Made by a program: the position numbers and the translations under genes | Notes under the pieces: model-generated | Database searches by the model: none | Seen by the model: only the letters and a program-made list of their open reading frames with translations | What the model was told of the DNA's origin: nothing | In this document: piece by piece, positions 9,100 through 64,000 of the stretch | Position numbering within the stretch: position 1 is the first letter of the stretch | Layout: every line of letters starts with the position of its first letter | Origin: Escherichia coli | Lineage (GTDB): Bacteria; Pseudomonadota; Gammaproteobacteria; Enterobacterales; Enterobacteriaceae | Direction: 5' to 3' (one strand) | Assembly (NCBI RefSeq): GCF_003018255.1 | Contig: NZ_CP027440.1 | Length of the DNA stretch: 64,000 nt

Positions 9100-9168
9100 T
9101 GTTCTGGTTCAAGATTAGCCCCCGTTCTGTTGTCAGGTTATACCTCTCAACGTGCGGGGGTTTTCTCT
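9100..9168 (+). ncRNA. rdl: Rdl antisense RNA (antitoxin of Ldr), approximate ends
   Basis: Segment caagattagcccccgttctgttgtcaggtt...cgtgcgggggttttctc matches my memory of RdlA and ends in a GC stem plus U-run; lies antisense to the ldr 5' leader. Boundaries not determined. Confidence 0.5.
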
Positions 9169-25295: not shown

Positions 25296-25475
25296 GATGG
25301 TGGTGGAGGAAGGATTACTCAGCGCTGCGCGCTTCGCCCTTCGGGTCGTTGCCTGCGGCCACGCTCTCTCGCTGGCGCTCGAGTCGAACCCTGGTCGAAG
25401 CTTCTCATCCTTCCCCGCTTGGGCAGAATATTTAATCGCGGATTCGTTTGAGAGTTCACGGACTTTTGAAAGTGA
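25296..25475 (-). repeat. tyrT-distal rtT/tpr-type repeat unit (about 180 bp) starting with a degenerate copy of the tRNA-Tyr 3' end
   Basis: Unit begins tggtggtggaggaaggatt, one mismatch from the tRNA 3' end tggtggtgggggaaggatt; lies transcriptionally downstream of the tRNA array on the minus strand. Confidence 0.55.
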
Positions 25476-25560
<85 letters not shown>

Positions 25561-25594
25561 AGGGGTAATTCAAATTTTGAGGTAATGCTTGAGA

Positions 25595-25679
<85 letters not shown>

Positions 25680-25713
25680 AGGGGTAATTCAAATTTTGAG
25701 GTAATGCTTGAGA

Positions 25714-25798
<85 letters not shown>

Positions 25799-62359: not shown

Positions 62360-62728
62360 ATGACTGAATTAACAAAAGAGCAATTAATCAAAGAAGCCAA
62401 ATTAAAAATAGCGGTTGCGAAATGTTACCCTAATTCAGAGATGGCCAGGGTAGAGGGAGAGCTATTCAAAATTGCACTGGCATCGCTGGAGGCGGTTCCG
62501 GTGGCATGGCTGCATTCAGACAATGGCCTGGGTATTCCAGCAATAACCAGGAGTAAAAACGTTGCTGATAGTTGGTTATCAAAGGGCTGGTATGTTCAGC
62601 CGTTATATGTAGCCCAACCTGTACCGGTGGTGCCGGATGCTCGTCCATCTTTAAATAATGGCATTGTCGGATTTGATGAAGGCTGGAATGCCTGCCGGGA
62701 TGCCATGCTTAATGGAGATAAATCATGA
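62360..62728 (+). CDS. Hypothetical protein (122 aa), first gene of a coupled three-gene cassette
   Basis: ORF track; no recognisable motif; stop overlaps the next start (ATGA at 62725-62728). Confidence 0.6.
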   Translation: MTELTKEQLIKEAKLKIAVAKCYPNSEMARVEGELFKIALASLEAVPVAWLHSDNGLGIPAITRSKNVADSWLSKGWYVQPLYVAQPVPVVPDARPSLNNGIVGFDEGWNACRDAMLNGDKS

Positions 62729-63426
62729 TTAATCGTATCAAACTGGAGCACATCCTCGAATATGCCGGGCAGCAGAGGCATATTGGTCAGCATTGTAAAA
62801 TTCCACCAGGAGATATGGTTGAAATCATGGAGATTGCCATGCGCAAGGCTGGCAACCCTCCGGTAACTCCGGGGCGTTTGCCTGGCGGTTTCACCATTGA
62901 GGAGGCGAAGGAGTTACATGAAGACCTGGTGCGCAGCCACATAAGCAAGGCTTTAAGTGGCGAAAAGATGAAGAAGAAGGATCTCGATGCTGATTTGCGC
63001 TGGATCCATGGGGTTATAGTCCAGGCCGCTTGGTTTGTAAAAGCATCACTGGAGCAGAATGTGCTAACGGGTAACTCTCAGGTAATCCCTGATGACGGTC
63101 GCGAACAGTTTGAAACACTTATCAGGTTCCATGCAGATGATAAAAACCATGAAACATTATTGCTTCGTGCTAACGAAGGGATGAATTACCGGGATCCAAA
63201 TGTGGATTTGGCATGGATATTCTGGAAATCCAGTCGAGAGCACATATTGCCTGGAAAAAGCGACAATAATCCAGCATCAGGCGATCAGGTAAGTGAATTA
63301 ACAATGTGGGTGAAGCGGTTATCTCATTCCTTAAAAAGCGTTAATAAATCAAGCAAACTACCGGATAAAGCGATGGACTACCTGAAGCGAAACGGACTGA
63401 TAAACGAGGAGAATATTTTACGATGA
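62725..63426 (+). CDS. Hypothetical protein (233 aa), second gene of the cassette
   Basis: ORF track; SD ggaga 6 nt upstream; no recognisable motif; stop overlaps the next start (ATGA at 63423-63426). Confidence 0.65.
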   Translation: MINRIKLEHILEYAGQQRHIGQHCKIPPGDMVEIMEIAMRKAGNPPVTPGRLPGGFTIEEAKELHEDLVRSHISKALSGEKMKKKDLDADLRWIHGVIVQAAWFVKASLEQNVLTGNSQVIPDDGREQFETLIRFHADDKNHETLLLRANEGMNYRDPNVDLAWIFWKSSREHILPGKSDNNPASGDQVSELTMWVKRLSHSLKSVNKSSKLPDKAMDYLKRNGLINEENILR

Positions 63427-63506
63427 CCTGGCCTGAAGCGTTCATAACGGTAGGAATTGCAATGGCGGTGGCGCTGGTGGTGTATTCGATTTGCCGCTGG
63501 GGATAA
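63423..63506 (+). CDS. Small hydrophobic peptide (27 aa), third gene of the cassette
   Basis: Not in ORF track (<60 aa): MTWPEAFITVGIAMAVALVVYSICRWG; SD gaggag upstream; single predicted transmembrane helix. Confidence 0.4.
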   Translation: MTWPEAFITVGIAMAVALVVYSICRWG

Positions 63507-63659
63507 AAACGGTTTGCGGGGAAAGAAGAGTTAAGTAGAATTGCTGCGGGTGCTTGAGGCTGTCTGCCTCGGGCATGCCGCCGTAAGGCAGACAGAGAAA
63601 AGCCCCAGTTAACATTACGCGTCTTGCAGGACGCTTAACATTAATCTGAGGCCCAATCT

Positions 63660-63872
63660 ATGCTTCACAAACGTAGGTTAGCCTCTTACGTGCCGAAAGG
63701 CAAGGAGAAGCAGGCTATGAAGCAGCAAAAGGCGATGTTAATCGCCCTGATCGTCATCTGTATTACCGTTGTTGTGACGGCACTGGTAACGAGGAAAGAC
63801 CTCTGCGAGGTACGAATCCGAACCGGCCAGACGGAGGTCGCTGTCTTCGTAGACTACGAATCTGAGAAGTAA
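63660..63872 (+). CDS. mok: Mok-like reading frame (N-terminally extended frame required for hok translation)
   Basis: ORF track 70 aa MLHKRRLASYVPKGKEKQAMKQQKAM..., parallel to recalled K-12 MokC; same frame as hok. Confidence 0.5.
   Translation: MLHKRRLASYVPKGKEKQAMKQQKAMLIALIVICITVVVTALVTRKDLCEVRIRTGQTEVAVFVDYESEK
63717..63872 (+). CDS. hok: Hok/Gef-family type I toxin (HokD/RelF-like, 51 aa)
   Basis: MKQQKAMLIALIVICITVVVTALVTRKDLCEVRIRTGQTEVAVFVDYESEK is near-identical to recalled HokD/HokC; SD aaggagaag upstream of ATG 63717. Confidence 0.85.
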   Translation: MKQQKAMLIALIVICITVVVTALVTRKDLCEVRIRTGQTEVAVFVDYESEK

Positions 63873-64000
63873 GAGTGACCAAGCGAGGGAGAAATCCCTC
63901 GCCACCTCTGATGTGTCAGGCATCCTCAACGCACCCGCACTTACCCCGTTCGGCAGACTTTGTTTTTTCCTGGCATTCTGGTTTACAATTCGCACGTCAG

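Follow-up and report, generated by a model that had tools for sequence, protein, structure and literature searches.

Described hok loci and the identity of the window locus

In the hok/mok/sok (parB) system of plasmid R1, the full-length hok mRNA is inert, because its translational activator element (tac) pairs with the fold-back inhibitory element (fbi) and the Shine-Dalgarno (SD) sequence of mok is sequestered by ucb. After trimming of the 3' end, the pairings tac/ucb and SD-mok/dcb are formed, and the RNA can then be translated and bound by the antisense RNA Sok (PMC9841398). Here we describe a locus of this type in a 64,000-nucleotide (nt) stretch of Escherichia coli DNA (RefSeq assembly GCF_003018255.1, contig NZ_CP027440.1), which we refer to as the window. 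We put the probability at about 0.9 that window positions 63513-63969 are a hok/mok/sok type I toxin-antitoxin (TA) module of the HokD/HokW subgroup, situated in the nin region of a lambdoid prophage. The locus is ordinary and already catalogued, with nearly all known regulatory parts in place.

Membership in the family was observed at both the protein and the RNA level. The 51-amino-acid (aa) toxin matches Pfam HOK_GEF (PF01848) with an E value of 3.4e-23 and 81.4 bits (cutoff 22), as well as PHROG 251, annotated as 'MokW-like host killing' (E 2.5e-32). Its score of 52.8 bits against the NCBIfam Hok subfamily model lies under the curated cutoff of 73, which is why the NCBI name is only 'Hok/Gef family protein'. 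Rfam RF01794 covers 63548-63722 along the whole model (1-157) with 117.7 bits and E 2.4e-27 (gathering score 59). Public contigs that carry the exact 51-aa and 70-aa proteins number at least 1000 for each, with names of the Hok family (Hok/Gef family protein for the former). The mok leader open reading frame (ORF) has its own SD, starts upstream of hok and overlaps it, an arrangement from which translational coupling is predicted. Altogether, every sequence-level feature of the hok/sok family was found at the locus except the canonical terminator. The small size of the ORF alone would be compatible with a chance ORF flanked by chance hairpins, an explanation that retains practically no probability. 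It is already refuted by the Pfam and Rfam matches (E 3e-23 and 2e-27) and by the presence of homologous places to the segment in 4,738 of 5,426 complete E. coli genomes (11,739 places in all), and fold z-scores of -5 to -6 likewise stand against it.

The locus is already known, in that all three genes of a 92%-identical counterpart have been annotated ever since the genome of Shiga-toxin phage 933W was recorded. DNA identity to hokW/mokW/sokW of 933W (GenBank AF125520.1) is 92.4% over window 63502-63945, and the two loci are alike in the 70-codon in-frame mok, the 51-aa hok, the C-terminus VDYESEK, the CUACGAA loop and the extended Sok hairpin. They differ in position, as the 933W locus lies near the right genome end beside genes of the tail-fibre region, whereas the window locus lies in the nin region. 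Three differences fall in the transmembrane part of Hok (I16L, V19I, V20I) and three of the 14 positions of the Sok 5' tail are changed. The 933W sequence 3' of fbi is unrelated to the window, and the consensus terminator sequence is absent there too.

The same position as in the window is occupied in K-12 by hokD (relF) of the Qin cryptic prophage (hokD, rem, ydfU/DUF968, ydfT/Q). K-12 hokD is near-identical to the window DNA from the hok SD through hok, the 3' hairpin and fbi, but relBE replaces everything 5' of the hok SD, leaving hokD without a hok promoter, tac, ucb, mok start and sok. As the alignment extends only from the hok SD onward, the window copy represents in complete form what is rearranged in K-12. 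Pedersen and Gerdes reportedly noted a 'major rearrangement' at hokD in 1999, which agrees with the relBE replacement. K-12 hokD in turn retains a clean terminator (CCCGC-TTCG-GCGGG-T5) that is lost in the window allele, and it has the C-terminus TAYEPEE and the loop UUACGAA where the window has VDYESEK and CUACGAA.

Plasmid R1 has the same elements and predicted switch as the window, with Sok promoted inside mok (R1 elements were taken from PMC9841398). R1 has mok (start at 116-118) and hok (start ending at 176) in different frames (PMC9841398), whereas they are in frame in the window, as are mokC and hokC of K-12. Moreover, the R1 locus is carried by a plasmid and the window locus by a prophage, and the window Hok has a Tyr, within a TadA-type loop, at the position of the second cysteine. 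The leaders of K-12 hokC, K-12 hokB and the window score similarly against RF01794 (118.3, 109.7 and 117.7 bits, respectively), while the Sok hairpin is about 18 nt longer in the window than in hokC and hokB. The two K-12 sites are chromosomal and non-prophage, with IS186 located 20 nt after the hokC stop.

An initial reading of the letters alone (the sequence-only reading) had proposed a hok/mok/sok-type locus here, and protein family, RNA family, gene layout and predicted mRNA folding all agree with that proposal. The HokD/RelF-like 51-aa toxin that it described in frame within a 70-codon mok-like frame is borne out by the ORFs and the Pfam match, and the Rfam search that it suggested returned RF01794. 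The upstream 10-bp stem, given as 63560-63597, is present, with 63560-63569 paired to 63586-63595. A downstream GC hairpin also exists, although it lies about 6 nt to the right of the proposed position (63883-63902, not about 63877-63896). Its remark that intactness matters, K-12 chromosomal hok loci being commonly inactivated, proved apt, since homology with K-12 hokD is confined to the stretch that begins at the hok ribosome-binding site, whereas the window copy retains the whole leader. Coordinates are collected in Table 1, in which relatives are the prophage loci introduced in the next section.

Table 1. Positions of the genes, RNAs and regulatory elements of the window locus (UTR, untranslated region)
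Feature	Position	Strand	Description
Putative weak hok promoter	-35 63513-63518; -10 63536-63541	+	TTTGCG, 17-nt spacer, TAGAAT; read from sequence
Full-length hok mRNA	63548-63968	+	~420 nt; 5' end by homology, 3' end uncertain
tac (translational activator element)	63548-63559	+	GGGUGCUUGAGG
5' hairpin	63560-63595	+	10-bp stem; two compensatory pairs, A-U in 73 and G-C in 15 relatives
ucb / anti-SD	63600-63606	+	AAGCCCC; in the predicted folds, masks the mok SD region before truncation and pairs with tac after it; invariant
mok SD	63648-63651	+	GAGG; 8 nt 5' of mok ATG
mok reading frame	63660-63872	+	70 codons, in frame with hok; ATG 19 codons before hok ATG
dcb	63681-63685	+	GCCUC; partner of mok SD in the truncated fold
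hok SD	63702-63707	+	AAGGAG; (nearly) invariant among relatives; K-12 hokD homology starts here
hok toxin gene	ATG 63717 to TAA 63870-63872	+	51 aa, HokD/HokW type, MKQQKAMLIALIVICITVVVTALVTRKDLCEVRIRTGQTEVAVFVDYESEK
Tyr47-codon hairpin	63845-63869	+	TAC 63855-63857 in the 7-nt loop CUACGAA 63854-63860
3' UTR hairpin	63883-63902	+	gcgaggga-GAAA-tccctcgc; 8-bp stem, GAAA loop; 4 compensatory pairs among relatives
fbi (fold-back inhibitory element)	63924-63936	+	CCUCAA-C-GCACCC; complementary to tac
Intrinsic terminator remnant	63943-63968	+	ACCCCGTTCGGCAGAC plus T-run (63959-63968); stem destroyed
Predicted sok promoter	-35 63703-63698; -10 63680-63675	-	TTGCCT, 17-nt spacer, TAACCT; placed by annotated sokW/sokC 5' ends
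Predicted Sok RNA	63668 to ~63598-63592	-	71-77 nt, by homology to sokW (933W) and sokC (K-12)

Folding of the hok mRNA and placement of Sok

We folded the hok mRNA in its full-length and 3'-truncated forms and compared the locus with its relatives, for which 120 related prophage loci were taken from IMG/VR and the 89 distinct ones aligned with the window (90 sequences). The start of the Rfam model match suggests that the +1 of the hok mRNA lies at G63548. In the minimum free energy (MFE) structure of the full-length RNA (63548-63972, 425 nt; z = -5.3 versus shuffles), tac pairs with fbi and the long hairpin has the mok SD paired within its base. The tac-fbi helix consists of 12 pairs and is 99.6% paired among relatives, with no compensatory change and with its 5' arm fixed by the search pattern. 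In the MFE structure of the truncated RNA (63548-63908; z = -5.9), tac pairs with ucb, and GAGGC (63648-63652) pairs with the GCCUC of dcb to form the SD-mok/dcb helix. The hairpin between SD-mok and dcb exposes the loop CUUCACAAA (63663-63671), which contains a YUNR-type UUCA and is complementary to the 5' tail of Sok. By analogy with R1, in which mutating the last stem-loop of the truncated hok mRNA abolishes toxicity (PMC9841398), the GAAA hairpin in the 3' UTR is the probable protective 3' stem-loop of the processed mRNA. A match to the ceN48 snoRNA family was dismissed as chance (23 bits, gathering score 70).

The full-length structure is 91.2% paired in the 90 relatives compared with 35-41% for slid-partner controls, a percentage inflated by the closeness of the relatives and by the derivation of the tested structure from the window sequence itself. 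Fifteen pairs are changed on both sides, a level reached by none of 500 shuffles, and these compensatory changes are located in the 5' hairpin, the Sok hairpin (4 pairs), the Tyr47 hairpin and the 3' GAAA hairpin. At the putative hok promoter, conservation of at least 90% extends over the -10 hexamer and the bases after it, and TTGGCG occupies the same -35 register in a second upstream family. The hok ORF is intact in 87 of the 90 relatives and the mok ATG is present in 83; in 22 of these 83, mok is out of frame with hok, the commonest such allele stopping at a TGA that overlaps the hok ATG. As the mok frame is not conserved, it is translation of the leader that matters and not its frame. Earlier work likewise reported that mok translation counts and the mok product does not (PMC9841398).

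An antisense sok-like RNA on the minus strand over the mok start, as anticipated by the sequence-only reading, is predicted by homology to sokW and sokC, with the annotated ends of sokC and sokB in K-12 serving as a guide. Its 5' end would lie 9 nt inside mok, as annotated for sokW and sokC, and its 3' end at 63598 if placed by sokW or at 63592 if placed by sokC. In its predicted fold (-32.1 kcal/mol, z = -5.0), which shares the architecture of SokW and SokC, a 5' tail of 14 unpaired nt, GUGAAGCAUAGAUU, precedes a long hairpin (complement of 63603-63654), and a GGGGCUUUUCUCU run forms the 3' end. For its promoter, which the sequence-only reading could not define, a generic scan of 63300-64000 gave no call, whereas homology placed TTGCCT-17-TAACCT. 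Among relatives, this promoter occurs as TTGCCT/TAACCT (n=63) and TTGACC/TAATCT (n=21), a conservation that is confounded by the overlapping mok codons, dcb and hok SD. The scan reported one promoter-like site (63635-63664, plus strand), which corresponds to no known element; it was not relied on, and homology served to place the promoters of hok and sok.

Although RF01794 is named as a 'sok antitoxin' model, it describes the 157-nt hok leader and not the ~60-70 nt antisense RNA (window 63548-63722, L002, L004). We therefore rejected the match as proof of an antisense RNA: here and at K-12 hokC and hokB the model lies on the hok-sense strand, opposite the annotated sokC and sokB, and so identifies the hok leader rather than Sok. 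Automated annotation from RF01794 would place 'sok' on the wrong strand.

Variation within the locus is highest in the template for the 5' tail of Sok. In the 13 nt that follow the mok ATG (63663-63675, plus strand), which contain the target loop, mean column entropy is 0.99 bits, compared with 0.10 in the hok coding sequence (CDS), at most 0.40 in other transcript segments and 0.74 in the terminator remnant. Nineteen versions of this segment occur in 83 relatives. Co-resident hok copies shared a Sok tail in 0 of 13 pairs versus a background of 8.8%, a difference that is not significant (P = 0.30).

The proposed mechanism follows the R1 paradigm by analogy. The weak promoter would give rise to a stable ~420-nt hok mRNA in which tac pairs with fbi and ucb buries the mok ribosome site, and the full-length RNA would therefore be neither translated nor bound by Sok. 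Slow 3' trimming to the GAAA hairpin would then remove fbi, allowing tac to capture ucb and the mok ribosome site to open, and mok translation up to the hok start would drive the synthesis of Hok. Sok, short-lived and transcribed on the minus strand (63668 to ~63595) from a promoter inside mok, would bind the exposed target loop through its 5' tail and cause destruction of the mRNA; in the scheme for the family, RNase III cleaves the Sok-hok duplex and the 3' trimming is exonucleolytic. Once the supply of Sok stops, through loss of the element or a shut-off of transcription, the pool of stable mRNA would yield Hok, a membrane-damaging peptide.

The terminator allele and the Tyr47 codon

The canonical part that the window allele lacks is the intrinsic terminator, a feature typical of family members but not family-defining. 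Most relatives and K-12 hokD carry AACCCGCTTCGGCGGGTTTTT (AACCCGC-TTCG-GCGGGTT plus a T-run) with a predicted stability of -12.8 kcal/mol. In the window, only the T-run is left and the remnant reaches -2.8 kcal/mol (z = +0.7), and it is this degeneration that makes the 3' end of the hok mRNA uncertain. A degenerate terminator of the form ACCCCGTT(T)CGGCAGAC is found in 8 viral contigs (L126-L133) on at least 4 different hok alleles, which marks it as an established variant rather than an error of sequencing; the window remnant has one T fewer than all 8 contigs and strain S19-141. We also considered whether the 3' GGCAGAC might be a compensating partner of the 5' GUCUGCC arm and rejected this, as the same 3' variant occurs with both ATCTG and GTCTG alleles of the 5' hairpin.

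Read-through from hok toward the downstream ORF is possible. A further idea, which we regard as rather improbable, is that the lost terminator lets a constitutive hok promoter run toward the nin-region genes and Q, coupling a TA promoter to late-gene control in a Stx (Shiga toxin)-phage-like prophage, and that the variable Sok tail reflects diversifying selection against cross-regulation among co-resident copies.

The codon for Tyr47 is held in a 7-nt loop closed by 4+4 bp (UAGA/UCUG and CUUC/GAAG). TadA is known to edit TACG in such loops, recoding Tyr to Cys; hokB is the only mRNA target in which all 7 loop nucleotides match the tRNA, and hokC/D/E are edited at the equivalent Tyr (PMC5630033). 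The edited Tyr29 of K-12 hokB lies in exactly the window loop, CUACGAA, whereas K-12 hokD and hokC have UUACGAA; among relatives, the two loops occur 18 and 71 times, respectively. The C-terminal alleles VDYESEK and TAYEPEE retain the Tyr47 hairpin through different codons. The window codon thus has the features of a TadA substrate, namely a TAC within TACG, a loop resembling the anticodon loop of tRNA-Arg(ACG), and a location at the position of the second conserved cysteine. From these features we predict that A63856 is a site of A-to-I editing, converting Tyr47 to Cys. The second cysteine is required for a disulfide bond that is essential to HokB toxicity (bioRxiv 10.1101/2025.08.07.668861), and full toxicity of the window Hok probably also needs TadA editing of Tyr47 to supply it. 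A second TACG motif is present inside hok at 63811-63814 (plus strand; GAG GTA CGA, Val32), where editing would be synonymous; it also occurs in K-12 hokD.

Prophage setting, role and significance

Several points weigh against the reading of the locus as a working TA module. Native chromosomal hokA, hokB and hokC gave no post-segregational killing in earlier tests (bioRxiv 10.1101/2025.08.07.668861). The generic scan of 63300-64000 called neither the hok nor the sok promoter and no terminator, the hok promoter being missed because its -35 matches the consensus at 3 of 6 positions and the sok promoter because its -10 does so. What the analysis shows is family membership by sequence, the full set of cis elements, the two alternative folds in silico and conservation among relatives; expression of the two RNAs, their transcription starts and processing, as well as editing, killing and the biological role, are inferred. 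The relatives are close, which inflates the pairing figure given above, and the covariation test says nothing on the helices of the active conformation because these are invariant among relatives. Furthermore, this allele has lost the intrinsic terminator by which the mRNA is closed in most relatives, and the kinetics of fbi removal depend on where the mRNA ends.

The absence of killing by chromosomal hokA/hokB/hokC (bioRxiv 10.1101/2025.08.07.668861), the lost terminator hairpin, the two weak promoters missed by the scan and the presence of only one of two cysteines in the genome-encoded Hok could also point to a structurally complete but functionally silent relic, with little or no transcription or not activatable, that hitch-hikes on the prophage like the K-12 hok loci. 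We consider this unlikely. All the cis elements that the R1 mechanism requires are found at the locus and are conserved in ~90 diverged prophage copies; hok has stayed intact in nearly all of these, and compensatory changes maintain the hairpins. In addition, representative Hok homologs are toxic wherever they are encoded (bioRxiv 10.1101/2025.08.07.668861) and a single chromosomal copy of R1 hok is toxic once Sok is removed (PMC9841398).

The setting of the locus can be read from other genomes. Several Shiga-toxin-type E. coli, strain S19-141 among them, have a chromosomal region with 99.8% identity to the segment, and in S19-141 the locus lies in a lambdoid prophage whose integration adjoins ompW. 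In S19-141 it is preceded by repressor/cro-like genes, O/P-type replication genes and a few small ORFs, and followed by a 90-aa ORF, DUF968, RusA and the Q antiterminator, all on the same strand. This gene order confirms the prophage setting put forward by the sequence-only reading. RefSeq names the S19-141 toxin 'hokD: Hok/Gef family protein' and annotates neither mok nor Sok. Of wider relevance, 44,248 Hok homologs have been catalogued and are enriched in prophages (bioRxiv 10.1101/2025.08.07.668861).

The same parts and regulation could have been selected for a role other than prophage maintenance, either defence against other phages, by abortive infection once an invading phage stops host transcription and Sok is lost through decay, or the lytic programme of the prophage itself. 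We hold this possible but doubtful. The hok gene is co-directional with the replication genes and Q, and read-through from the early promoter would therefore include it. Pecota and Wood are said to have found in 1996 that R1 hok/sok excludes phage T4. Phage defence has also been raised as a possible role of prophage hok, but hok is not enriched next to defence systems (bioRxiv 10.1101/2025.08.07.668861). Against a different role stands the 'prophage maintenance' assigned by the annotators of 933W, although this too is only an annotation.

A number of observations concern the neighbourhood. A 27-aa hydrophobic ORF (MTWPEAFITVGIAMAVALVVYSICRWG) at 63423-63506 (plus strand) shares an ATGA with the stop of the 233-aa ORF that precedes it. 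Among the fetched relatives, tblastn gave 58 matches in which this small ORF is uninterrupted and its substitutions are conservative. RefSeq leaves it unannotated in S19-141, and a few genomes label it hypothetical or 'bacteriophage protein'; elsewhere, 121-aa DUF551 proteins have the same peptide as their C-terminal tail. The ORF might encode a small membrane protein or be left over from a module junction. The 233-aa ORF (62725-63426, plus strand) matches PHROG 924, of no assigned function, with E 1.5e-75, and gave no Pfam or NCBIfam match. In S19-141, RefSeq annotates its DNA as two pieces, a pseudogene fragment named 'hypothetical protein' and a shorter CDS, though the frame is open throughout. 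Beyond the end of the window, the S19-141 prophage 3' of Q (L125 22333-29139) has the layout of a Stx phage, with a methyltransferase, tRNA-Ile, tRNA-Arg, a nanS-like SASA esterase and lysis genes; a tolA-like gene and a helix-turn-helix gene lie between the tRNAs and the esterase. The stx genes of Stx phages sit at about this place, from the tRNAs to the esterase.

Other records and other parts of the window also deserve mention. Phage vB_Apl-pPE4, with the recorded host Actinobacillus pleuropneumoniae, carries a hok locus 92.8% identical to that of the window, and in phiSTEC1589-Stx1c the homologous hok stretch lies under a feature annotated 'tail fiber protein' (records PP818812.1, PQ600364.1). 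The host of vB_Apl-pPE4 is odd for an E. coli-like hok locus and may reflect mis-assignment or contamination. In the chromosomal part of the window, 9101-9166 (plus strand) matches the Rfam rdlD antitoxin with 87 bits, a second, unrelated type I TA locus (ldr/rdl) of which one copy reached the gathering score. Three tRNA matches of equal score and 119-nt spacing, followed by an RtT RNA element, lie at 25298-25798 (minus strand) and look like a three-copy tandem array of the tyrT/tyrV type, which has two copies in K-12.

Nothing at the locus would surprise a specialist. Its value lies mainly in correct annotation, with coordinates for all regulatory parts and with the placement of Sok added. 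The window locus is a natural, nearly complete counterpart of the rearranged hokD of K-12, and it could be used for testing killing by prophage hok, toxicity gated by editing through the perfect TadA-type loop at Tyr47, and the orthogonality of Sok tails between co-resident copies.

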